A stretch of 34,511 nt of DNA, from the NCBI GenBank assembly GCA_964373475.1, contig CAYJUX010000001.1, positions 1 through 34,511 of the forward strand, in the 5' to 3' direction. How positions within the stretch are numbered: the stretch's first letter is position 1; each line of letters begins with the position of its first letter. Of this stretch, positions 1,792 to 34,511 are shown one piece after another. The position numbers and the translations under genes are program-made. The stretch is from an uncultured Candidatus Saccharibacteria bacterium (lineage in GTDB: Bacteria; Patescibacteriota; Minisyncoccia; Sungbacterales; SURF-37). The notes under the pieces are model-generated. The model did no database searches, was not told the origin of the DNA, and saw only the letters and a list, made by a program, of their open reading frames with translations.

Positions 1792-2259
1792 ATGCGGCGG
1801 AAGCGCAGCGTTGAGCGACAACTGGATCCCGATCCGCGCCACGGCAATACGCTGGTCACGAAGTTCGTGCATTACGTCATGCGCCAGGGCAAGAAGTCCA
1901 TAGCCGAGAAGGTCGTCTACGGCGCGTTTGCCATTGTCGCGCGGGAGACCGGCGAGGATCCGCTTATTGTTTTTCAGCGCGCCATTGCCAACGCCTCGCC
2001 GCTCCTGGAGATCAAGTCGCGGCGCATCGGCGGGGCCAACTACCAGGTGCCCCGCGAGGTGAATCCCAAACGCCGTACGGCGCTGGCATTCCGCTGGATC
2101 ATCGGCGCGGCCCGCGCCAAAACGGGCAAGCCCATGGCCTCAAAGCTGGCCGAGGAACTTACCTTGGCGGCCAAGAACGAGGGCATCGCCATCAAACGCA
2201 AGGCGGACATGCATCGGATGGCCGAGGCCAATAAGGCCTTTGCCCATTTCGCGTGGTGA
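1792..2259 (+). CDS. rpsG: 30S ribosomal protein S7
   Basis: 155 aa, MRRKR...LVTKFVHYVMRQGKKSIAEK...RRIGGANYQVP...AFAHFAW; canonical S7 at the syntenic position after rpsL. Confidence 0.95.
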   Translation: MRRKRSVERQLDPDPRHGNTLVTKFVHYVMRQGKKSIAEKVVYGAFAIVARETGEDPLIVFQRAIANASPLLEIKSRRIGGANYQVPREVNPKRRTALAFRWIIGAARAKTGKPMASKLAEELTLAAKNEGIAIKRKADMHRMAEANKAFAHFAW

Positions 2260-2299
2260 AATTGAGCCGCAGGCGAAGGTTTCCCAGTTGCGAAATGGA

Positions 2300-2452
2300 G
2301 CACCCCGCACGAATTTTACGCCTCTGAATGGGTTTAATATGGATAAGATTGAATATCAGAGAACATCTCGCGGCGCGCGTGGGCGAATAGCCCATCCCGC
2401 TTCGGGCGCAGCGCGTCGCCATGGTAGGGTTCGTAAAATTCGTGCTGGGGTC
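2300..2452. repeat. Structured palindromic element, family A copy 1 (MITE/REP-like, 153 nt)
   Basis: Terminal inverted repeat gcaccccgcacgaattttacg / cgtaaaattcgtgctggggt. The core gcgtgggcgaatagcccatcccgcttcgggcg is homologous to the copies at 7337-7487 and 14647-14798. Confidence 0.8.
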
Positions 2453-2472
2453 GCCCATTTTGCGCGGTAGTG

Positions 2473-5106: not shown

Positions 5107-5412
5107 ATGTTCGACCAGCTAAAACCTATCATGCAGAACGGCGAGCGCTACATCGTCGTGGAAGGCGGCAGGCCGGAGTATGTACTGATGCGCTTTTCCG
5201 ATTATGCCCGCATCGCCGGTCATCGGGAAAGCACTGGCGTTAGAGGCGAATATGGACGCGCGCCGGGGCAAAACCCGGGCGAATGGGAGCGCGCCAATGC
5301 GGAACTGGAGGAAGTGCGCGCGACCGAGCCCGCGGCGCGCACGGCCGATTTTGGTACCGCCTTCCCCTCCGCCGACCCCACGACCATCCGCCTGGAAGAT
5401 CTCCCGCTCTAA
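5107..5412 (+). CDS. Small protein with a Phd/YefM-antitoxin-like N-terminal domain; no toxin partner present
   Basis: 101 aa. The N-terminus NGERYIVVEGGRPEYVLMRFSDYARI resembles the Phd/YefM beta-strand core. The C-terminal half is acidic and low-complexity and ends in EDLPL. Inserted between fusA and tuf. Confidence 0.5.
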   Translation: MFDQLKPIMQNGERYIVVEGGRPEYVLMRFSDYARIAGHRESTGVRGEYGRAPGQNPGEWERANAELEEVRATEPAARTADFGTAFPSADPTTIRLEDLPL

Positions 5413-5519: not shown

Positions 5520-6713
<1,194 letters not shown>

Positions 6714-7113: not shown

Positions 7114-7132
7114 ATCGGTCGGTGGATAGTTG

Positions 7133-7172
7133 CCCCTCACCAGTTTCCCGTGCCAAAGAAACTGATGAGGGG
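7133..7172. repeat. Hairpin with family-B-like CCCCTCACC ends
   Basis: cccctcaccagtttc-(10 nt)-gaaactgatgagggg. The ends match the CCCTCACC termini of the elements inside rnpB. Confidence 0.6.
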
Positions 7173-7336
7173 GAGCGATCCGCATCGCTTCACTCGGTTG
7201 TATGGAATTCAATAGCCCCACTGGCTAGTCCAAATACGTAACCCCGTGTTGCTTTTAGGCGCCGGGCAACCGGCTTTTTCATTTGCCGGCCTGCGAGCGC
7301 AAGCCCGTGGCGCCGCGCGAGCAGCTGCCGCAAATG

Positions 7337-7487
7337 AACCCCGCACCAATTTTGCCGGCGCAAAGGGGGCAGCGTGGATGCGCCCTCGCGATCGGCAAAC
7401 TCATGCGAAGCGCGTGGCCGAATAGGCCGTCCCGTTATGGGCGAAGCGCTTCGCCGTGGCATACCTCGCAAAATTGGTGCCGGGGTT
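7337..7487. repeat. Structured palindromic element, family A copy 2 (151 nt)
   Basis: TIR aaccccgcaccaattttgc / gcaaaattggtgccggggtt. Core gcgaagcgcgtggccgaataggccgtcccgttatgggcgaagcgcttcgcc. Confidence 0.85.
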
Positions 7488-7503
7488 TGCTGCAAGAACA
7501 TCC

Positions 7504-11505: not shown

Positions 11506-12219
11506 ATGACTCATAGAGTGCACCCCTACGTATTCCGTCTCGGCCAGACCACGACCTGGAAGTCGCGCTGGTTCAGTGCCAAGCGCTTCCCGTCGTACCT
11601 GCGCGAGGACACACTCCTCCGGGAATGGCTGTGGCAGCGCCTCCGCGAGGCCCATGTTTCCTCCATTGAGATTGAGCGCTCGCCCAATGTCATGAACCTC
11701 ATCATTCGCACTTCCCGGCCCGGCATCCTGATCGGTCGCGGGGGCGAGGGCATTGAGCGACTCAAGAAGGACACGGTGAAGAAACTTTCATCATTCCAGA
11801 AAAAAGTCCGGCCCGGAGCGTCCCGGCGTATGCCGGCCGAGGAGCGCCGCGACCTGAAGCTCGTCATTGAAGAGGTACGCTCCCCGGAAACCGATGCCCG
11901 CATCGTGGCCGAGCAGATCCGGGACGACATTGAGAAGCGCATCCGTTTCCGGCGCATCCTCAGGCAGACGGTGGAGAAGGTGATGTCGCATAAGGAAGTG
12001 GAGGGCGTAAAGGTCATGCTCTCCGGCCGCCTGGACGGCGCGGAAATGTCGAGGACCGAGTGGTCCAAGAAAGGCCGCATCCCCCTGCAGACGCTCCGCG
12101 CGGCCATTGACTATGCTTTCACCGAGGCGCATACCACCTACGGCACCGTCGGCATAAAGGTGTGGATCTATAAGGGGGAAGTGTTTAAGGAGAGTGAGCA
12201 GGTTAAGCAAGTTAAGTAA
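11506..12219 (+). CDS. rpsC: 30S ribosomal protein S3
   Basis: MTHRVHPYVFRLGQTTTWKSRWF...; KH/S3 core. The last codons (QVKQVK-stop) lie inside repeat H1. Confidence 0.95.
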   Translation: MTHRVHPYVFRLGQTTTWKSRWFSAKRFPSYLREDTLLREWLWQRLREAHVSSIEIERSPNVMNLIIRTSRPGILIGRGGEGIERLKKDTVKKLSSFQKKVRPGASRRMPAEERRDLKLVIEEVRSPETDARIVAEQIRDDIEKRIRFRRILRQTVEKVMSHKEVEGVKVMLSGRLDGAEMSRTEWSKKGRIPLQTLRAAIDYAFTEAHTTYGTVGIKVWIYKGEVFKESEQVKQVK

Positions 12220-12267
12220 ATTAAGTGAATTAAGCTTAACTCGCTTAACTTGCTTAATTCACTTAAT
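12198..12267. repeat. Palindromic element, family H copy 1 (TTAAGCAAGTTAAG words), overlapping the rpsC 3' end
   Basis: gcaggttaagcaagttaagtaaattaagtgaattaagc + ttaactcgcttaacttgcttaattcacttaat. Both arms are identical to 21301-21396. Confidence 0.9.
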
Positions 12268-12278
12268 CAGCTCAAGTT

Positions 12279-12683
12279 ATGTTGCAGCCCAAAAAAGTCA
12301 AACACCGAAAATGGTTCAAAGGCCGTTCCCGCGGCATTGAGACGCGCGGAGCCGATCTGGCCTTCGGCAGTTTTGGCCTGAAGGCCGAGGAGGCGCGCTG
12401 GCTTACCGCGCGGCAAATAGAGGCGGCGCGGCGCGCCATTACCCATCATATTCAGCGCGGCGGCAAGGTATGGATACGGGTATTCCCGGATAAGCCGGTG
12501 ACGAGAAAGCCGCCGGAAGTTACGCTCGGCGGCGGCAAGGGGTCGGTCGACCACTACGTATTCCCGGTCCGCCCGGGACGGATCCTGTTTGAGATGGATG
12601 GCGTCTCGCCCGAAGTCGCCGCCGAAGCGCTCCGCCGCGCGGCCGCCAAACTGCCGTTACGGACCCGCATTGTTTCCGCCTAG
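12279..12683 (+). CDS. rplP: 50S ribosomal protein L16
   Basis: [19 protein letters not shown]...; canonical L16. Confidence 0.96.
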
Positions 12684-13537: not shown

Positions 13538-13640
13538 TTTACGGATTACCGATGTGTACGGATATACCGATTCGAATTCGAATGGCCGGATACTCGTACG
13601 ATTTCCATCCGTATATCCGTATTGTTCCGTAATCCGTAAA
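13538..13640. repeat. Long imperfect inverted repeat, family D copy 2
   Basis: tttacggattaccgatgtgtacggatataccgattcgaat pairs with ...ccatccgtatatccgtattgttccgtaatccgtaaa. Same words as 247-374. Confidence 0.85.
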
Positions 13641-14641: not shown

Positions 14642-14646
14642 CTATG

Positions 14647-14798
14647 GCACCCCGCACCAATTTTGCAACCAGTTCTCTCGCGAACCGCTTCGCCCATCGC
14701 GGGATGGCCTATTCGGCCACGCAGTTCGCGAGCATATCCGAAGTTATTACCACTCTGTGCACATGGCGAAAAAACAGCGCAAAATTGGAGCGAGGTGC
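14647..14798. repeat. Structured palindromic element, family A copy 3 (152 nt, inverted relative to copies 1 and 2)
   Basis: TIR gcaccccgcaccaattttgc / gcaaaattggagcgaggtgc. The core ctcgcgaaccgcttcgcccatcgcgggatggcctattcggccacgcagttcgcgag is the rc of the copy-2 core. Confidence 0.85.
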
Positions 14799-14799
14799 T

Positions 14800-14838
14800 C
14801 ATGTTTCTAGTCAGTCGCTTCGCTCCTGAAGAAACATG
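14800..14838 (+). promoter_or_regulatory. Hairpin sequestering the rpsN start codon
   Basis: catgtttct-(21 nt containing cgcttcgc)-agaaacatg. The 3' arm contains the ATG at 14836-14838. Confidence 0.45.
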
Positions 14839-15021
14839 GCAAAGAAATCCGTCATTGCGCGCGCGCTCCGCCCCCCGAAGTTCAAATCCCGGGTGGTACG
14901 CCGTTGCTTTCGCTGCGGCCGGAAACGCGGATATCTAGGCGCGTTTGATCTTTGCCGCATCTGCTTTCGGGAGCTGGCCAATAAGGGCGAAATACCCGGC
15001 ATCCGGAAGTCATCCTGGTAA
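14836..15021 (+). CDS. rpsN: 30S ribosomal protein S14, short zinc-binding type (type Z)
   Basis: 61 aa, [61 protein letters not shown]. Confidence 0.94.
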
Positions 15022-15158
15022 AACCCTAAGCCCTAAACCCTAATCTCTAAATAAGTCCCAATGACCAAAGTCCAAATGACCGAAACACGTTCCGTTGAAT
15101 TTCGAACATTAGGATTTTGGATTTGTTTAGGGTTTAGAAATTAGGATTTAGGATTTTC
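15021..15158. repeat. Long imperfect hairpin, family E copy 2
   Basis: aaaccctaagccctaaaccctaatctctaaataag... pairs with ...ggatttgtttagggtttagaaattaggatttaggatttt. Central motif cgaaacacg. Confidence 0.75.
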
Positions 15159-16690: not shown

Positions 16691-17170
16691 ATGCCACGAC
16701 GAGAGCGAATGAGAGGGGGAGAGCGGGAGCGTTCTGAATTTGACCAGAAGCTTCTGGATGTCCGGCGCGTCGCCCGCGTGGTTGCCGGGGGGCGGCGCTT
16801 TAGTTTCCGCGTGACCGTGGTCATCGGGAACCGGAAGGGAAAGGTGGCCGTGGCCGTGGCCAAGGGAGCCGACGTTTCCAGCGCCATTGAGAAAGCCGTC
16901 AGCCGCGCCAAAAAGCATCTCTTCGTCGTGCCGATCACGCCCTGGGGTTCGATCGGGCACGAGGTACGCGCGAAATACGGCGCGGCGCGCGTGCTCATCC
17001 GCCCGCGGCCGGCCGGGTCGGGCATCGTGGCCGGCGGTTCGGTGCGGGCCGTGGCTGAACTTGCGGGCATTACCAATATCTCCTCCAAGATCCTCTCGCG
17101 TACCACGAATAAGCTGACCAATGCCATGGCCACGCTGGAAGCACTCAAGCAACTTAAAACGAGAATCTAG
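16691..17170 (+). CDS. rpsE: 30S ribosomal protein S5
   Basis: MPRRERMRGGERERSEFDQKLLDVRRVARVVAGGRRFSFRVTVVIGNRKGKVAVAVAKG...; the ATG at 16691 is preferred to the GTG at 16679. Confidence 0.92.
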   Translation: MPRRERMRGGERERSEFDQKLLDVRRVARVVAGGRRFSFRVTVVIGNRKGKVAVAVAKGADVSSAIEKAVSRAKKHLFVVPITPWGSIGHEVRAKYGAARVLIRPRPAGSGIVAGGSVRAVAELAGITNISSKILSRTTNKLTNAMATLEALKQLKTRI

Positions 17171-17261
17171 AATATAGAATTTAGAATCTAGAATCGCCCG
17201 AATAACTACTATCATTACCGATGTCCCAAATTCTAGATTCTAGCTTCTAGATTCTAAATTC
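17166..17261. repeat. Long hairpin (family L, TCTAGAAT words) occupying the position where rpmD (L30) normally lies
   Basis: gaatttagaatctagaatc (17177-17195) pairs with gattctagcttctagattctaaattc (17237-17261). The left arm overlaps the rpsE stop. Confidence 0.85.
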
Positions 17262-20031: not shown

Positions 20032-20843
20032 TCATCGCGAACGACGGCGAGCTCGCCACGATCCGGGGATGTGGAACGCGCCTGGCACGCATTGTAGCAG
20101 AACTCGTTGCCGCGGTGAGCCCCGGCATTTCGACGAGCGAACTTGACCGCCTCGCGGAGCAGCTGATTTATAGGCAGGGCGGATTTCCGGTATTCAAGGG
20201 CTACCGCTCCCATAAGGGCGAGCGGCCGTTCCCGGCGAGCATCTGCACCTCGCTCAATGAGGAAGTGGTGCACGGTATCCCGAGCCCTAAACGAATATTG
20301 AAGGACGGCGATATTATCGGCATTGATATCGGCATGCGCTGGCCGTCACAGGATCAAAAATCAAAAATAAAAAATAAAAGCGATGGAGCTGAAGTGGGGT
20401 TGATCACGGATATGGCTCTGACGGTTCCGGTCGGCGAGGTTTCTCCGCTTACCCGTCGGCTGCTGGATACGACCCAAGGGGCGCTGGCAGCGGGCATCCG
20501 CGTTCTCAGGCCCGGTATGCGTCTCGGCGGTCTGGGGCGCGTTATTCAGGAGGCCATCGAATCGGATGGATTTTCCGTGGTGAGAGACCTGGTCGGGCAT
20601 GGGGTTGGGAAGAAACTGCATGAAGAGCCCTATGTTCCTAATTACGGGGATCCCGGGGAAGGAGAGTTTATTCGCGAAGGGATGGTGCTGGCCCTTGAAC
20701 CCATGGCCGCGAGCGGCAGTGCCGCGGTGGAACTGGCCCCAGACGGCTGGACTTGGCGCACGGCCGATGGCTCGCTGGCCGCGCATTTTGAACATACGGT
20801 GGTGGTAACAAAGGGGGGAGCGGAGATACTCACGAAGTTATGA
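20028..20843 (+). CDS. map: Methionine aminopeptidase type I, with an internal low-complexity insertion
   Basis: ...CTSLNEEVVHGIP...GDIIGIDIG...GHGVGKKLHEEP...LALEPM...HFEHTVVVT; pita-bread metal ligands recognisable. ATGA overlap with the NUDIX gene. Confidence 0.92.
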   Translation: MIIANDGELATIRGCGTRLARIVAELVAAVSPGISTSELDRLAEQLIYRQGGFPVFKGYRSHKGERPFPASICTSLNEEVVHGIPSPKRILKDGDIIGIDIGMRWPSQDQKSKIKNKSDGAEVGLITDMALTVPVGEVSPLTRRLLDTTQGALAAGIRVLRPGMRLGGLGRVIQEAIESDGFSVVRDLVGHGVGKKLHEEPYVPNYGDPGEGEFIREGMVLALEPMAASGSAAVELAPDGWTWRTADGSLAAHFEHTVVVTKGGAEILTKL

Positions 20844-20940
20844 AATTACAAATCACAAGCACCAAAATACAAATAAGCACCAAATCCCAAGCACTAAATC
20901 CCAATCACTTTGTAATTTGGAATTTGTGATTTGGAATTTT
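20843..20940. repeat. Long imperfect hairpin (family M, AAATCACAA words)
   Basis: aaattacaaatcacaa pairs 15/16 with ttgtgatttggaattt. Low-complexity CA-rich loop. Confidence 0.75.
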
Positions 20941-20944
20941 ACGC

Positions 20945-21322
20945 ATGCGCTACCTCGGCATTGACTACGGCAAAAAGCGCATTGGGCTTGCGCTCTCCGA
21001 CCCTGAGGGCCGGATGGCATTCCCCGCGGCAACGGTCGAGCGGGAGGGCGAGATATTGGAGTTCATCGCCGAGAAAGAAATAGCGGCCATCGTTATTGGT
21101 CTGCCGCTCGGCCTTGATGGCGGAGAATCGGATGCATCCTCCCGGGCGCGTGCGTTTGCGGCGCGGCTTGGTACATCGGTACAATTACCTATAGCGTTTG
21201 AGAATGAAATGTTCACCACCAAAATAGCCGAGGAGCATTCTTCGGGCGAGCACGCCGACGCCGCCGCCGCCGCCCTGATACTGCAGTCGTATTTGGATAA
21301 GCAGGTTAAGCAAGTTAAGTAA
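20945..21322 (+). CDS. ruvX: Putative pre-16S rRNA nuclease / Holliday junction resolvase-like YqgF
   Basis: MRYLGIDYGKKRIGLALSDPEGRMAFP...AIVIGLPLGLDGGES...; the last codons (QVKQVK-stop) lie inside repeat H2. Confidence 0.88.
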   Translation: MRYLGIDYGKKRIGLALSDPEGRMAFPAATVEREGEILEFIAEKEIAAIVIGLPLGLDGGESDASSRARAFAARLGTSVQLPIAFENEMFTTKIAEEHSSGEHADAAAAALILQSYLDKQVKQVK

Positions 21323-21396
21323 ATTAAGTGAATTAAGCTGATAAGGCTTTCTGCTCCGCTCGGCTTAACTCGCTTAACTTGCTTAATTCACTTAAT
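21301..21396. repeat. Palindromic element, family H copy 2, with a 26-nt central insert
   Basis: Arms identical to 12198-12267; the extra centre is tgataaggctttctgctccgctcgg. Confidence 0.9.
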
Positions 21397-21403
21397 AAAC
21401 TTG

Positions 21404-22135
21404 ATGTACCTAAGTTGGATCATTCCGGCATACCGTGAAGAACGGCGGATCTTAAAAACCCTTGAGGAGGTGAGCGCGTATTTGCGCCGGAAGGATTTTC
21501 CGGGAGGGTATGAGATCATCGTCGTGGATTCGGCTTCGCCGGATCGGACGGCGGCCATAGTCAAGGGTCTCCAAAGCCGTATACCCGAGCTTCGGCTTTT
21601 GAGCGTGGAAAATCGCGGCAAGGGCTGGGCGGTGCGCGCCGGGATGCTGGAGGCCAAAGGTGCTATTCGGATATTTTCCGACGCCGATAACTCAACTCCG
21701 CCCGAATTCTTCGATGCCATGGCACCGCTTTTTGCCGCGGGTTACGACGTGGTTATTTCTTCCCGCGATCCCAAAGATGTGCCCGGCGCCTCGCGGGATG
21801 TGGAGGAGCCGTGGTATCGCGAGGTACTGGGGAACCTCGGTAACCTCTTGATCCAGATCGTCGGCGGCATGTGGGGGATTTGGGATACCCAGAACGGTTT
21901 TAAAGCCATGACGGCGCGGGCGGCTGGTGTTATTTTTCCCCGTATGGTCATGCGAGGGTTCTCATTCGATATCGAACTCTTAGCGCTCGCGCGGCGAGCT
22001 GGCCTCCGCATTGGTGTTATTCCCATCCGGTGGCGATTCGACCCAGATAGCAAGGTGACGCTCAAGGCCTACCTCCAGGTGTTCGCCGACGTGTTTCGCA
22101 TCCGGTGGAACCTTCTGACCGGTCGCTACCGCTGA
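21404..22135 (+). CDS. Glycosyltransferase family 2 (dolichyl-phosphate glucosyltransferase-like)
   Basis: WIIPAYREERRI...YEIIVVDSASPDRT...NRGKGWAVRAGMLEAKG..IFSDADNSTP; GT-A DxD-type signature. Confidence 0.85.
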   Translation: MYLSWIIPAYREERRILKTLEEVSAYLRRKDFPGGYEIIVVDSASPDRTAAIVKGLQSRIPELRLLSVENRGKGWAVRAGMLEAKGAIRIFSDADNSTPPEFFDAMAPLFAAGYDVVISSRDPKDVPGASRDVEEPWYREVLGNLGNLLIQIVGGMWGIWDTQNGFKAMTARAAGVIFPRMVMRGFSFDIELLALARRAGLRIGVIPIRWRFDPDSKVTLKAYLQVFADVFRIRWNLLTGRYR

Positions 22136-27836: not shown

Positions 27837-27872
27837 TAATTTTGTTCCCCATTCCGGTAAGCCGAATTCTGT

Positions 27873-27904
27873 CCCCGCCCCTGTTTTGAAAAACAGGGGC
27901 GGGG
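27873..27904. repeat. Perfect 14-bp hairpin inside rnpB, between the putative P2 3' strand and the ACAGAA (P4 3') strand
   Basis: ccccgcccctgttt-tgaa-aaacaggggcgggg. Confidence 0.7.
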
Positions 27905-28210
27905 GATGGCCATCTGTCTAGCCCCGCAATTACTTGCGGGATCAAGCGGGTCCCCCAGCCCCATGAAACTGGGGCTGGGCCCCCTTGCACCAGGTAGGTG
28001 TTTTCCTCACCCCGCAAGTCGCCTTGCGGGACTGTGGGCTCTTACCGTACCCCGCGTGCCGCCGGCATAGCCTATGGCGACGCTCGGCCGAAGCGGAGCA
28101 CCCCGCGTAGGCGGGCCACTCTTTTCACCCTTTACCTCCTCCACGCTGGAAACTTTTAGGGTTTCCGTAGTGACGATCGGTAGTATGGTCTCTGTGGTAC
28201 TGTCCCGTTC

Positions 28211-28313
28211 CCCCTCACCGATTTTACATCCGAGTTCTGTCCTGCTATACAATCGCTTCACGCAAAATTGAACGCTGTCGGTTAGTAATCTCCGATGTAA
28301 AATCGGTGAGGGG
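28211..28313. repeat. Palindromic element, family B copy 1 (103 nt), at the P9 position of rnpB
   Basis: TIR cccctcaccgattttacatccgag / ctccgatgtaaaatcggtgagggg (23/24). Lies immediately 3' of the P8-like hairpin in RNA sense. Confidence 0.8.
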
Positions 28314-28398
28314 TATGGTGGCCGTTAGCCACTACCTTTGACCCCAATGCTCCGCATTGGATGCGAAACACTGGAGACGGTGTTCGGACTTTCCTCAT

Positions 28399-28500
28399 CC
28401 CTCACCAATTTTACACCCAAGCACTGCCCTATCATTCAATCGCTTCGCGCAGAATTGACATGCTATCGCTCAGAAATCTCCGATGTAAAATTGGTGAGGG
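28399..28500. repeat. Palindromic element, family B copy 2 (102 nt), at the P3 position of rnpB
   Basis: TIR ccctcaccaattttacaccc / ctccgatgtaaaattggtgaggg. About 75% identical to copy 1 without indels. Ends 2 nt before GAGGAAAGUCC in RNA sense. Confidence 0.8.
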
Positions 28501-28530
28501 ACGCGGCCATCCAGAACAGGGAACAGCATA

Positions 28531-29319: not shown

Positions 29320-29476
29320 GGGATTGCACTCCCATCTCCAGCTTACCTCGCTCAGATATTGCTCGGATATGCGGCCAGCGGGGATCGAACCTGCGTTTCG
29401 AGCTTGCTTCCACACCAATGCGAGTGACGGGGATCGAACCCGTGTCCCCAGCTCTTGCCCTCCCACCTTTTCGCTG
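29320..29476 (-). pseudogene. Tandem tRNA 3'-half relics (two clear, one degraded)
   Basis: Minus strand carries T-arm + acceptor 3' strands acgggttcgatccccgt-cactcgc-a (29419-29443) and gcaggttcgatccccgc-tggccgc-a (29370-29394). No matching 5' halves exist. A third, weaker unit lies around 29320-29368. Confidence 0.6.
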
Positions 29477-29564
29477 ATGCGGGATACCAGAATCGAACTG
29501 GTACTTACTGCTTGGGAAGCAGCCGTTCTGCCACTAAACTAATCCCGCGTAAAAGGTGGGAGGG
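29458..29564. repeat. Perfect 14-bp inverted repeat bracketing tRNA-Gly
   Basis: ccctcccacctttt (29458-29471) and aaaaggtgggaggg (29551-29564). Confidence 0.9.
29478..29548 (-). tRNA. tRNA-Gly (anticodon CCC), CCA not encoded
   Basis: gcgggat-ta-gttt-agtggca-gaac-g-gctgc-ttCCCaa-gcagt-aagt-accag-ttcgatt-ctggt-atcccgc-a folds into a canonical 71-nt cloverleaf. Confidence 0.88.
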
Positions 29565-29565
29565 T

Positions 29566-29602
29566 GAAGGAAGCTGATGTTCTGCCACTATATTAATGTC
29601 GC
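29566..29602 (-). pseudogene. tRNA-Gly 5'-half-like relic overlapping the gatB stop codon
   Basis: Minus-strand gcgacattaatatagtggcagaacatcagcttcc compared with the tRNA-Gly sequence gcgggattagtttagtggcagaacggctgcttcc. Confidence 0.5.
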
Positions 29603-31753: not shown

Positions 31754-34511
31754 ATGATAGTAAAAGACAATCGAATTTACCTATCGCTAAAGGAGATCGC
31801 TCCGTCGAGTCCCTACTCTGCGGACTACCTCCGTATACGGATCCTCCAAAGGAAACTCCAGGGTATTAAGGTTGGCCGCGAGTGGTATATCACCAAGGAG
31901 TGGCTGAATGAGTATCTCTCTCGATACGGCATGAAGCGAATGGAGCCGGTACTGCCGGTAACGGGGTCGGAGCCAGGGGGAGCGATACCCGAGGCGGCAC
32001 CGGCGGCAATTCCCGCGCAAGAGCCAGTTCCAGTTTTTTTTGAGGCGGCAACGGAACCCATCGTTTCGCTGGCGCCCGCGCTTGCGGCAATTGAGCAGCC
32101 GGAAGGAACTTTTGACCCCGCAGTAACGGTGCCCTCCGCCGAGTTGCCGCTGTCCCGGCCCGAGGAGGAGATCATTCCGGCTGCGGCAGTAGCGCGATTG
32201 CCCGAGCCGATCCGCGTTTCCAAGGAGGAAATTTTTCGGCGGCATGACTTTCGCGAGTTTTCAAAAGGTCTCCGCCTGCCTATTTCTGGAAAAATTTTAG
32301 CGGCGCCGCTGCTGGCCGCTCTCCTCTTTTTTTTCATCTCGCCGACTGGAGCGTCATTTTTTCCGTGGCGGGGCGCGCTCGCGTCCCGCGCCGTTTCTCT
32401 TCTTGATGGCACCGGCGCATTTCTCTTAGAGGCCCAACTGCCTCGCCTGAGCGCGCTTCGCGTCCCCGAGCGATGGGTGCGCTGGCCCGACGTGGTTACT
32501 GAGGAGCTTGTCCAGGTCAATTTTGGACCTGTTACTTCCTCGTGGAATGGTTTTCGCCACGGGATAACCGCCTCAGTCAGCTTTTTTGGTGGGTATATTG
32601 CATTCCCTCCTGACGCGATCGGAGGCGCAGTTTTAGAGATGGACATCCCAGAGTTGGCCAGGGCCGGCGATCGCCTGGGGGCGATCTTTTCGCCTCTGGC
32701 TGGGTTCGCGGCTGCATCGCGAGAATATAACGCATCTGCTTTTTCTTGGGACCCCGCGTGGTATGAGGATATTCCTGAATTTCCCGGCAAGCTCCGCGAT
32801 GCCGGCGCCTATGCGTTCCGTCATATCGGTGATGCGCTGGTGGAGTTTGACCCTCCCTCGCGAAAAGATATCGCGGCCGGAGCAAAAAGAGCTGCCAATG
32901 CTTCGGACAATGCTATTGCCGGCCTTGCTCATATAGGGAATATTGCCTGGGATCTCTCCGGTGGATTAAAAGAGTATGCGGCGCATTCGCTTTCCTCCAT
33001 CCAAAGCGCCGATGTCCTCGGGGCACTGCGGCGTTTTATTGCTGATCTGCCCCGTCCGAAACTGCCTGAGCGGATGGCCAGATTTTTCAACCTTTCTTCG
33101 CCGCCGCTGACGGCGCCGCAAGCCAACGCGCCGGTGCGTCGGGCGTTGGATAAGAATCAAGAAGCAGGGATCATGAAGCAGGAAGCAAGAAGCACGAAGC
33201 AAGAAGGGGGCGCAGTTGCGGCCGCTCCGGCAGTGACGCCAGTCCGTGAAATCGTGGAAACGCGGGAGGTAGTCCGGCCGGCCGATGCTTCGCTCTTCCA
33301 GGCAAAACTGGATGAATTGAACGCCGGCCTCTCCGGACGGGCAAATAAACTTATTTCCGAATTGGCCGGTCTTTACGAGGGGAAAGAGATCAAGGCGTCG
33401 GTCATCCGGATATTCTCTCCCTCCCAGTCCATCAATGAGCTCCAGGAAGAGTTGGCCAGGGCCGGCGATCGCCTGGGGGCGATCTTTTCGCCTCTGGCTG
33501 GGTTCGCGGCTGCATCGCGAGAATATAACGCATCTGCTTTTTCTTGGGACCCCGCGTGGTATGAGGATATTCCTGAATTTCCCGGCAAGCTCCGCGATGC
33601 CGGCGCCTATGCGTTCCGTCATATCGGTGATGCGCTGGTGGAGTTTGACCCTCCCTCGCGAAAAGATATCGCGGCCGGAGCAAAAAGAGCTGCCAATGCT
33701 TCGGACAATGCTATTGCCGGCCTTGCTCATATAGGGAATATTGCCTGGGATCTCTCCGGTGGATTAAAAGAGTATGCGGCGCATTCGCTTTCCTCCATCC
33801 AAAGCGCCGATGTCCTCGGGGCACTGCGGCGTTTTATTGCTGATCTGCCCCGTCCGAAACTGCCTGAGCGGATGGCCAGATTTTTCAACCTTTCTTCGCC
33901 GCCGCTGACGGCGCCGCAAGCCAACGCGCCGGTGCGCCTGGCCCTTACGCCGAAAGATGAGAAGCAGGAAGCGGGCGCAGCTCCGGCGGCGCCAGTTCGC
34001 GAGATCGTGGAAACGCGCGAAGTAGTCCGGCCGGCTGATGTCTCCTCGTTCCAGTCCCAACTGGACCAGCTGAACGCCGGGCTGCGCACCCAGGTCGCAA
34101 AGCTCATCACCGATGTGGCCACCCTGTACACGGTCACGGATAGGAAGGTCACCACCATCACTTCCTTTGCCCCGTCCCAGAGCATTGACGAACTGCAAAA
34201 CTTGAAAGTGGACAGCGGCCTTACGGTCCGCTCCGGGAATTTTTTTATTTCCGCGGGCGACCTTACGGTTACCGGGAGTGGACGCGTTACCGGCACGCTC
34301 GCCATTGACGGCACTTTTTCCGCCGCATCCCTTTCCACCGGTGGCCTCGTTACCTCGACTGGTTCCGGCACCAGTACCTTCTCCGGCGGCGGCTCCTTCG
34401 CCGGCCTGGCCTCATCAAATGGCCTGCGCGTCTCGGCCGGAGATACCGTGCTCGCCGGCGGCCTCGCGGTTACCGGCTCCTCCAACTTCACCGGCAGTGT
34501 CGGCATCGGGA
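31754..34511 (+). CDS. Large HTH-TM-repeat protein, 3'-truncated by the window end (>919 aa)
   Basis: Open frame from the ATG at 31754 to the window end (absent from the ORF track, probably because there is no stop). N-terminus IYLSLKEIAPSSPYSADYLRIRILQRKLQGIKVGREWYITKEWLNEYL (excisionase/MerR-like HTH); TM helix ILAAPLLAALLFFFISP; two ~266-aa repeats; G/S/T-rich beta-helix-like tail. Confidence 0.75.
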   Translation, partial: MIVKDNRIYLSLKEIAPSSPYSADYLRIRILQRKLQGIKVGREWYITKEWLNEYLSRYGMKRMEPVLPVTGSEPGGAIPEAAPAAIPAQEPVPVFFEAATEPIVSLAPALAAIEQPEGTFDPAVTVPSAELPLSRPEEEIIPAAAVARLPEPIRVSKEEIFRRHDFREFSKGLRLPISGKILAAPLLAALLFFFISPTGASFFPWRGALASRAVSLLDGTGAFLLEAQLPRLSALRVPERWVRWPDVVTEELVQVNFGPVTSSWNGFRHGITASVSFFGGYIAFPPDAIGGAVLEMDIPELARAGDRLGAIFSPLAGFAAASREYNASAFSWDPAWYEDIPEFPGKLRDAGAYAFRHIGDALVEFDPPSRKDIAAGAKRAANASDNAIAGLAHIGNIAWDLSGGLKEYAAHSLSSIQSADVLGALRRFIADLPRPKLPERMARFFNLSSPPLTAPQANAPVRRALDKNQEAGIMKQEARSTKQEGGAVAAAPAVTPVREIVETREVVRPADASLFQAKLDELNAGLSGRANKLISELAGLYEGKEIKASVIRIFSPSQSINELQEELARAGDRLGAIFSPLAGFAAASREYNASAFSWDPAWYEDIPEFPGKLRDAGAYAFRHIGDALVEFDPPSRKDIAAGAKRAANASDNAIAGLAHIGNIAWDLSGGLKEYAAHSLSSIQSADVLGALRRFIADLPRPKLPERMARFFNLSSPPLTAPQANAPVRLALTPKDEKQEAGAAPAAPVREIVETREVVRPADVSSFQSQLDQLNAGLRTQVAKLITDVATLYTVTDRKVTTITSFAPSQSIDELQNLKVDSGLTVRSGNFFISAGDLTVTGSGRVTGTLAIDGTFSAASLSTGGLVTSTGSGTSTFSGGGSFAGLASSNGLRVSAGDTVLAGGLAVTGSSNFTGSVGIG
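32650..33138 (+). repeat. Direct repeat copy 1 (489 bp, identical by eye to copy 2)
   Basis: agagttggccagggccggcgatcgcc...gccaacgcgccggtgcg recurs exactly 798 bp downstream. Confidence 0.9.
33448..33936 (+). repeat. Direct repeat copy 2 (489 bp)
   Basis: Same sequence as 32650-33138. The offset of 798 bp equals 266 codons, so the repeat is in frame. Confidence 0.9.

Follow-up and report, generated by a model that had tools for sequence, protein, structure and literature searches.

We describe Family A, a folded sequence element present in three copies in the ribosomal-protein operon spacers of the window, the 34,511-nt NCBI contig on which all window coordinates are given. On balance, we interpret Family A as a low-copy, non-autonomous, structure-dependent insertion element of Patescibacteria, and we hold this interpretation with somewhat more confidence than doubt. 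We observed a common fold with covariation, exact presence and absence of the element at gene boundaries, a recurrent target context, flanking repeats, and relatives with other cargo. The window proteins L5, S7 and GatB are closest to those of 'Candidatus Sungbacteria', and an exact look-up of the window S14 protein gave no record.

Reading and alignment located the three copies of about 152 nt (151-153 nt) where the first-pass annotation had placed them, at 2300-2452 and 7337-7487 on the plus strand and at 14647-14798 in inverted orientation. With slightly wider limits they span 2295-2456 (plus), 7331-7491 (plus) and 14643-14803 (minus). The host spacers are likewise those named there, namely after rpsG, before rplC, and between rplE and rpsN, and the flanking gene pairs of copies 1, 2 and 3 are rpsG/fusA, rpsJ/rplC and rplE/rpsN, respectively. 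The 21-nt core GTGGSCGAATAGSCCRTCCCG occurs exactly three times in the window against 0.03 occurrences expected, and a 17-mer of the terminal stem, with up to three mismatches allowed, is found at 10 places (0.22 expected). The ends of the three copies account for six of the ten, and two shorter hairpins near 28.2-28.5 kb for the other four. The three copies show 76% mean column identity and their variable parts are unrelated. The main body is formed by a closing stem (P1) of 16-20 bp, a variable hairpin of about 48 nt, and a near-invariant core folded as a three-way junction. An extent of about 152 nt is correct for this main body but not for the full element, since a hairpin on its 5' side, H0, adds about 45-60 nt. 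The parts of the three copies are as follows.

2241-2302, plus strand: hairpin H0 of copy 1, from the per-copy fold
2242-2259, plus strand: 5' arm of this H0, identical with the last five codons and stop codon of rpsG, GCCCATTTCGCGTGGTGA
2303-2450, plus strand: main body of copy 1, from fold and alignment
2303-2319 and 2433-2450, plus strand: P1 5' strand and P1 3' strand of copy 1
2320-2369, 2370-2419 and 2420-2432, plus strand: variable hairpin, three-way-junction core and linker of copy 1
2453-2470, plus strand: downstream direct repeat of copy 1, GCCCATTTTGCGCGGTAG, a decayed duplicate of the rpsG end, 15/18 identical, reading AHFAR*
7261-7279, plus strand: native intrinsic-terminator-like hairpin with T run after rpsJ, also in the relative L063; copy 2 starts directly after it
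7278-7338, plus strand: hairpin H0 of copy 2, from the per-copy fold
7339-7487, plus strand: main body of copy 2
7339-7355 and 7468-7484, plus strand: P1 5' strand and P1 3' strand of copy 2
7356-7404, 7405-7454 and 7455-7467, plus strand: variable hairpin, core and linker of copy 2
14644-14649, plus strand: ATGGCA, repeated directly at 14836-14841; it is the original rpsN start, now displaced, and follows the native Shine-Dalgarno sequence
14644-14829, plus strand: 61-codon open reading frame (ORF) that opens at the displaced start, crosses the element and closes with a TGA 6 nt short of the real rpsN ATG
14650-14795, minus strand: main body of copy 3, inverted
14650-14666 and 14779-14795, minus strand: P1 strands of copy 3
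14680-14729 and 14730-14778, minus strand: core and variable hairpin of copy 3
14796-14841, minus strand: hairpin H0 of copy 3, whose plus strand holds the working rpsN start ATG at 14836

Each window copy folds into the closing stem, a private hairpin and the three-way junction, with z-scores of -4.2 to -6.1. Both sets of compensatory changes reported in the first-pass annotation are present, namely GGCC/GGCC versus GGGC/GCCC in the hairpin and GCGAAG/CTTCGC versus GCGAAC/GTTCGC versus GCGGCG/CGTCGC in the enclosing stem, and its proposal that structure and not only sequence is conserved is strongly supported by covariation in a multi-copy alignment. The covariation statistics were calculated on an alignment of 20 copies with 500 shuffles. 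Standard pairs fill 98.1% of the cells at consensus pairs, and double changes were found in 19 of 34 pairs compared with 7.1 +/- 1.7 in the shuffles, none of which (0/500) reached as high a number. When the partners were slid by 1-3 columns, pairing fell to 36-47%. The double changes occur in 12 of the 16 pairs of P1 and in 6 of the 9 pairs of the core-enclosing stem, while hairpin B (GUGGCC-GAAUA-GGCCAU), hairpin C (CCCG-NNNU-GGG) and a CGAA joiner are near-invariant. The single terminal inverted repeat quoted earlier proved to be a mixture, with a 5' arm (GCACCCCGCACCAATTTTGC) from copy 3 and a 3' arm (GCAAAATTGGTGCCGGGGT) from copy 2. The real P1 arms differ from copy to copy (...CACGAATTTTAC / GTAAAATTCGTG... 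in copy 1), and in the copies of other organisms both arms change together with pairing kept.

We then considered which strand carries the fold. The strand of copy 3 that matches copies 1 and 2 folds at -75.7 kcal/mol, compared with -56.8 kcal/mol for its complement, and the sense strand was the more stable one in 17 of 23 copies under RNA parameters. In addition, we counted 19 variable G-U pairs and one G-U pair invariant in 20/20 copies, at the foot of hairpin B, against 7 A-C mismatches. The excess of G-U over A-C together with the stability of the sense strand indicates that the fold belongs to one strand; the acting strand could be RNA or DNA, and the data fit either. When the variable segment was examined as a possible guide or copy of nearby sequence, no significant match or complementarity was found within the same locus.

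The hairpin H0 was found by alignment with 220-nt flanks and by folding the 100 nt upstream of every copy. We describe it from the per-copy folds; the MAFFT alignment shifted some arms by one column. H0 is a conserved, covarying hairpin of 46-62 nt located directly 5' of P1 in 21/21 copies examined, and its arms differ widely in sequence among copies while their pairing is kept. From the foot, H0 starts with 3 bp and, in about half of the copies, a 3'-strand bulge of 1 nt (in the remainder the lower stem is uninterrupted); then follow 9-10 bp, a second bulge on the 3' strand (2 nt in 17/21 copies and 3 nt at the same position in 4/21), about 4 bp, an internal loop, and an apical hairpin GC(C)-GNRA/GAA-(G)GC, and some copies contain additional hairpins in the upper part. 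Since H0 adjoins the 5' side of P1, the inserted unit amounts to about 190-215 nt, that is, 213 nt in copy 1, about 201 nt in copy 2, and 192 nt in copy 3, where it lies between the ATGGCA repeats. About ten copies have an intrinsic-terminator-like hairpin and T run directly 5' of H0, as in copy 2 (7261-7279). Where the element abuts a gene, H0 overlaps the gene edge. It covers the last five codons and stop codon of rpsG in copy 1 and in the copy of the metagenome-assembled genome (MAG) L018, and, with the element antisense, the ATG of rpsN (copy 3), rplL (L010/L049), groEL (L029b), and the gene of a 406-residue protein (L003). We also considered H0 as a pre-existing spacer hairpin, which was ruled out by empty sites without H0.

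The position of copy 3 parts rpsN from its Shine-Dalgarno sequence. The 61-codon ORF at 14644-14829 begins at the displaced Shine-Dalgarno sequence and ATG and ends 6 nt before the working rpsN ATG, and the copy before groEL (L029b) shows the same arrangement. The core is read in different frames in these two copies, indicating that no conserved peptide is encoded, and L049 and L003 are without such an ORF and contain stops. These differing frames and stops, and the absence of the element in relatives, also speak against copies being fragments of a conserved protein-coding gene, which the first-pass annotation had named as an outcome that would overturn its view. Judging from the sequence, the ORF is possibly a translational-coupling bypass restricted to the copy 3/L029b subfamily, which in copy 3 may re-deliver ribosomes to rpsN. 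Caution is needed with gene callers here, as the rpsN start, the rpsG end and the RNase P RNA are all disturbed in the window.

In order to find copies in other organisms, core-pattern scans were performed once each on representative genomes and metagenome contigs, which returned 62 loci. Most of these were chance matches in unrelated bacteria on inspection and were discarded. About 20 distinct true copies were recognized in Patescibacteria MAGs and groundwater or sediment metagenomes. The hosts comprise Parcubacteria GW2011_GWA2_42_14 (two copies), two Saccharibacteria-labelled MAGs, one unclassified MAG, and metagenome contigs, where the G+C fraction of the element ranges from 0.38 to 0.68. 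Exact-core matches numbered at most 2 per representative genome, and most genomes seem to have few copies. A covariance model built from 20 copies added three more (L059 461-663, L029 214-373, and L045 290-457). These three, which were not selected by the pattern, keep the fold, with GAAUA in 3/3. Hairpin B of L045b is changed in a compensatory manner to GUGCGC/GCGCAU, in L059b hairpin C is followed by an inserted hairpin of about 40 nt, and hairpin C is weakened in L029b and L045b. The copies are always intergenic, in both orientations, and lie beside unrelated housekeeping genes, which include murD, efp, mutM, folD, greA, recG, purA and groEL. Rfam 15 gave no match at gathering score over the window, and relaxing the threshold to E <= 10 for copy 3 and for copy 2 plus H0 brought up noise only. 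In viral contigs the core gave 0 matches, and the 120 matches of the terminal stem were all rejected as chance, none having a partner arm or core. No description of Family A was found in the searchable literature, the literal core sequence included among the queries.

Comparison with related genomes revealed that all three window sites are empty, with no visible replacement, in the nearest relative, GCA_964365675.1 with matching Hainich contigs, which shares 97% identity in S7, 96% in EF-Tu and 82% in L5 with the window. First, at rpsG-fusA, the relative has the rpsG end ...GCGCACTTTGCGTGGTGA and fusA 18 nt later, while the window spacer is about 590 nt long. Second, at rplE-rpsN, the genes of the relative are 2 nt apart (...GAGGAAAATAAATAACTATGGCCAAGAAATCC, or in a shorter quotation ...AATAACTATGGCCAAG), while the window reads AAAATAACTATGGCA, the element, and then GAAGAAACATGGCA-AAGAAATCC. 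Third, at rpsJ-rplC, the rpsJ terminator of the relative is directly followed by the rplC leader. Ribosomal-protein regions of five related genomes, 146 kb in all, contained no copy detectable with the covariance model. As for the site at the rpsG end, L070, L071 and L072 have no element there (S7 identical to that of the window at 0.97, 0.84 and 0.85, respectively), while the much more distant L018 MAG (0.73) has a copy that shares with copy 1 a common H0, compensatory P1 changes, and the variable-region motif AATATGGRTAAG. An occupied site in L018 with empty sites in closer relatives indicates that precise loss occurred repeatedly or, alternatively, that one variant reached this site more than once independently.

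The junctions carry imperfect direct repeats of about 3-18 nt, which are significant overall (permutation p = 0.004). The repeat of copy 1 is 18 nt long and 15/18 identical, with a downstream AHFAR* compared with the working AHFAW*, and the pattern of L018 is similar. Copy 3 has TGCCAT, L003 and L054 have repeats of 5-6 nt, and in most other copies only 3-5 nt are repeated, around a YAT triplet. A long flanking duplication as a universal feature was therefore rejected, as it holds for a minority of copies, and a target duplication of fixed length was not found either, since the repeat length varies and only some copies exceed the cross-copy control. The YAT triplet recurs at the left junction, and on the sense strand the flank triplet 5' of YAT pairs with the triplet in front of P1; the two co-vary among copies (TGC/GCA, CGC/GCG, TGG/CCA, CGA/TCG). 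If the unit were closed into a circle, H0 and P1 would form one continuous helix with the joining point in mid-helix. Copy 3 and L029b constitute one subfamily and have the same 11-nt context, ACT^ATGGCAAA, before rpsN and groEL in two organisms, which argues for sequence-directed insertion. The upstream repeat of copy 3 matches the leader of the nearest relative, while its H0 arm (GAAGAAACATGGCA on the plus strand) equals the native rplE-rpsN leader of the L066 lineage (AGAAGAAACATGGCC; also quoted as GAAGAAACATGGC).

Using the covariance model with filters off, we obtained weak matches that define a wider group of hairpins with P1-like stems. The two shorter hairpins of the window noted above lie at its RNase P RNA.

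28207-28316, minus strand: related hairpin with P1-like termini CCCCTCACCGATTTTACA / TGTAAAATCGGTGAGGGG, at P9 of RNase P RNA
28396-28501, minus strand: second related hairpin, sharing 80-87% identity with the P9 hairpin and located at P3 of RNase P RNA

A relaxed Rfam scan identified 27842-28377 (minus strand) as class A RNase P RNA (79 bits, E = 8.5e-24), under the gathering score of 100 because of insertions. The 110-nt hairpin takes the place of P9, and the Sungbacteria relative L194 has the same P9 extension. By comparison with L194, the gene starts near 28525, about 150 nt upstream of the start called by the model. The second hairpin takes the place of P3, where L194 has a P3 of 7 bp. 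Since the P3 and P9 hairpins are alike and L194 has a short P3, it appears that a duplication placed the module at a second helix tip in the window lineage. The RNase P RNA (27842-28525, minus strand) also has a 78-nt P12 region and a G+C-rich hairpin at 27865-27911. A P1-like stem of 14 bp (CCCTCCCACCTTTT / AAAAGGTGGGAGGG) encloses tRNA-Gly(CCC) at 29405-29602 (minus strand) of the window and also in L193 at 6470-6610. This tRNA is flanked by a degenerate tRNA 5' half that overlaps the gatB stop codon and by a tRNA 3' half. The arrangement resembles a tRNA cassette inserted into the anticodon loop of an older tRNA that has since decayed. L194, by contrast, has just one tRNA-Gly there, overlapping the gatB stop, and the nearest relative has the 5' part of the arrangement. 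A weak model match at L049 5697-5780 was rejected, being outside any detectable RNase P RNA. Finally, the rpsJ-rplC spacer of L018 (1140-1337, minus strand) contains two tandem mini-elements with an H0-like hairpin (2-nt bulge) and a plain G+C-rich hairpin and no core, which suggests that H0 and a terminal stem form a chassis able to occur without the Family A core.

Based on these observations, we suggest the following course for an insertion element. Propagation would proceed through a folded single strand, either ssDNA or RNA, in which H0 and P1 stack into one rod. Joining of the strand to the chromosome would take place at a YAT triplet in a setting similar to the foot of the rod, so that a few to 18 nt end up duplicated and an interrupted stop codon, start codon or terminator is rebuilt, and the conserved junction may be the handle for a putative trans-acting enzyme. 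Ordinary homologous recombination following DNA uptake may be a further way for the element to reach the same site in another genome. The host tolerates it thanks to its compact helical form and to a landing place immediately outside coding sequence. Small folded non-coding insertions in bacterial spacers are a kind already known. Family A is set apart by the conserved junction beside a free variable arm, the covarying termini, H0 with its fixed bulge, the variable junction repeats, the low copy number with a homing-like distribution, and the relatives at the helix tips of RNase P RNA. The first-pass annotation contained neither H0, nor the flanking repeats, nor the relatives inside RNase P RNA.

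Here, we need to consider several points that weigh against an insertion element. First, the core conservation is partly imposed by the search pattern; only the three model-found copies are unbiased, and two of them have the weakened hairpin C. Second, a core that is near-invariant across hosts, in elements of 38-68% G+C, would suit a host function too. Third, the strand bias is modest with DNA parameters, the sense strand being better in 14/23 copies. Fourth, long flanking repeats are clear only in copy 1/L018, copy 3, L003, L054 and L058. Fifth, recent copy-and-paste within one genome would leave near-identical copies at different sites, and none were found. Sixth, no transposase, recombinase or reverse transcriptase was found linked to Family A or among the window proteins, which are housekeeping proteins only, plus an RNase H-like protein and a Cas2/PaaX-like protein. 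Finally, absence in relatives could reflect precise loss between flanking repeats.

The main competing explanation is that Family A is a structured RNA useful to the host, in which P1, and perhaps H0, is a processing or stabilizing stem of the RNase III type; it could be a small stable RNA or a cis module for mRNA decay, processing or translation at operon junctions. We regard this explanation as possible rather than probable. The covariation is of the kind seen in functional RNA, the invariant G-U pair at the foot of hairpin B, the GNRA-like GAAUA pentaloop and the GNRA loops on H0 are all in keeping with it, and the two rpsG-site copies differ by compensatory P1 changes. In our reading, about 15 copies lie on the same strand as the neighbouring gene compared with 4 antisense ones, several copies are followed by a terminator-like hairpin, and the same terminal stem occurs around tRNA-Gly and as transcribed extensions of RNase P RNA. 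However, a host RNA fits poorly with the pattern of presence and absence, as three copies are gone in a relative with a 97% identical S7, and the copies adjoin genes unrelated to one another. The element is antisense to the abutted gene in four copies, one of which parts rpsN from its Shine-Dalgarno sequence, and about ten copies sit directly after an intrinsic terminator, where a promoter would not fit and no match to one was found. In addition, there is no Rfam family, and the variable part is without complementarity to nearby sequence.

If Family A is an insertion element, it might, with the wider group of hairpins that have its terminal stem, go further and represent a new mobile class, in which a folded strand (the H0 and P1 rod) is the moving form, the target is chosen by resemblance to, or pairing with, the foot of the rod so that the arm programmes the landing site, the junction recruits the enzyme, and the chassis carries different RNA cargos, namely the junction, a tRNA, and helix extensions of RNase P RNA. 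We put this broader proposal forward tentatively and would expect it to fail more readily than to hold.

Derivation from a system of the IS200/IS605 or REP (repetitive extragenic palindromic)/RAYT (REP-associated tyrosine transposase) type, in which a Y1 HUH transposase recognises hairpins of one strand and inserts the element beside a short fixed target, seems unlikely to us. The fold is strand-asymmetric, a YAT recurs beside the insertion and can pair with ATG(A) just 5' of the P1 foot, and the lagging-strand template could account for the bias in orientation relative to genes. A target duplication of fixed length is missing, and the empty sites look like precise excision or insertion. These features agree with palindrome-associated elements, which are hairpin-based and strand-biased, lack a classical duplication, leave precise empty sites, and pair their flank with a short internal sequence. 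However, the ends of Family A form one long, global inverted repeat rather than two direct subterminal hairpins, with H0 and P1 unlike each other and P1 spanning the main body. Moreover, the unit is about 200 nt long with a branched core, there is no REP-like unit of 20-40 nt and no GTAG-type head, no Y1 transposase is present among the window proteins, and an element of this family would not be expected to have the flanking repeats of 6-18 nt that some copies show.

Equally improbable in our view is an origin without dedicated machinery, by template switching or microhomology-mediated recombination within genomes and by natural transformation with homologous recombination between them. The variable length of the junction repeats (3-18 nt) is in line with such a process, as are the P3 hairpin of RNase P RNA, whose likeness to the short native P3 of L194 is limited to CCC...GGG, the identity of the copy 3 H0 arm with the native leader of L066, and the ComEC-type competence genes in relatives. 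It leaves unexplained the near-invariance of the 50-nt junction beside a free 48 nt across hosts of differing G+C, and also the target context common to copy 3 and L029b. A self-splicing or excised intron-like RNA, with H0 as an exon-guide-like helix and removal restoring the mRNA, is very improbable, because the element occurs in both orientations relative to the host transcript, its ends are without intron consensus nucleotides, and no group I, group II or ribozyme match was found even at E = 10, although the sporadic, homing-like distribution at conserved housekeeping-gene sites and the ideal rpsN leader that excision between the ATGGCA repeats would restore are of the kind expected of it.

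We also compared Family A, as an insertion element, with known systems. The first-pass annotation had offered either a REP- or MITE-like (miniature inverted-repeat transposable element) sequence or a non-coding RNA made of a scaffold and a variable module. The insertion-element part of that proposal is supported by the three empty sites in the nearest relative, while assignment to REP sequences or to textbook MITEs is not. Correia elements of Neisseria, of about 105 and about 155 bp, are bacterial MITEs with long terminal inverted repeats, as are ERIC and RUP. Like these MITEs, Family A is small and non-coding, forms a single long hairpin, and occupies operon spacers in either orientation; co-transcription with neighbours and short and long size classes with common termini are listed as further likenesses. 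Family A has terminal inverted repeats (P1 of 16-20 bp), but its arms covary among copies. It also differs in lacking a fixed TA or fixed-length duplication, near-identical copies (as judged from the three in the window), a known parent insertion sequence and any sequence similarity, and in having H0 and a three-way junction conserved across distant hosts. No autonomous, transposase-bearing element with Family A ends was found in the window or in viral contigs. Bacterial MITEs with long terminal inverted repeats have been reviewed (PMC3184786, PMC2229807).

Compared at the level of sequence and fold only, integron attC sites and the folded attP of CTX-type phages, which are recombination sites recognised by their structure as single strands, resemble Family A in keeping structure while sequence varies, in a strand-specific fold with fixed bulges and a variable centre, and in joining at a short triplet, as proposed for Family A. 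In contrast, the alignments of Family A contain no R/L boxes (RYYYAAC / GTTRRRY), its copies are single and scattered rather than in a cassette array, and it has no intI or dif context and carries no gene. The intervening sequences of 23S rRNA, extended stem-loops that sit at helix tips and are removed by RNase III, are similar in that the P1-stem relatives extend the P3 and P9 helix tips of RNase P RNA and are sporadically distributed, but Family A itself lies in mRNA spacers and not in a structural RNA. Group IIC introns insert 3' of intrinsic terminators, where about ten Family A copies are found directly. Family A is about 200 nt long against at least 600 nt for these introns, however, and has no intron domains, no Rfam match, and both orientations. 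An autoregulatory leader of ribosomal proteins does not fit either, as Family A stands beside many genes of other kinds and in both orientations.

The genomes of Patescibacteria are tiny and streamlined, and yet the present lineage puts up with folded insertions of about 200 nt at the stop and start boundaries of its most essential operons and even inside RNase P RNA. If Family A is a mobile element read by structure and directed by its arm, it would represent a new mode of moving DNA and a possible programmable insertion tool, and part of the odd spacer content of these genomes would be explained. If the junction is instead a functional RNA, it would be a widespread, uncatalogued RNA class in poorly studied bacteria. 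In either case, Family A marks recent turnover at gene boundaries.

Other structured sequences were observed in the window. Long A+T-rich hairpins whose arms consist of repeats of about 9 nt fill the ribosomal-protein spacers at 1675-1790, 12188-12281, 13538-13640, 15019-15156, 17163-17261, 20843-20939 and 21291-21419. Several belong to families that occur twice, the matching spacers of the nearest relative (L063) are 2-10 nt long, and similar hairpins follow rpsG in L071 and L072. The rpsG-fusA spacer contains another inverted-repeat element at 2470-2645 (arms ATATCACGTTTTTCTCC) with GCTTCGC on both sides, a possible 7-nt target duplication, and after it, at about 2655-2801, a 48-codon ORF for a small hydrophobic protein; both are absent from L070. 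A P1-like hairpin at 7126-7180, CCCCTCACCAGTTTC...GAAACTGATGAGGGG, follows rpsJ, and since L063 and L018 have structured sequence at the same place, it could be a conserved RNA element of the S10 operon.

Finally, we noted several protein-coding features. A 300-nt direct repeat with 100% identity (32650-32949 and 33448-33747) lies within adjacent paralogues of 254 and 259 residues that have no Pfam match. In the nearest relative, L070 414-2755 encodes a large serine recombinase of 519 residues and a 240-residue protein beside rpmB, upstream of the str operon; the window contig begins at rpmB and is hence uninformative on this locus. Between fusA and tuf, the window has a 101-residue ORF (5107-5412) with no Pfam match, and L066-L068 and L070-L072 have ORFs of 86-106 residues at that place, likewise with no Pfam match on record.

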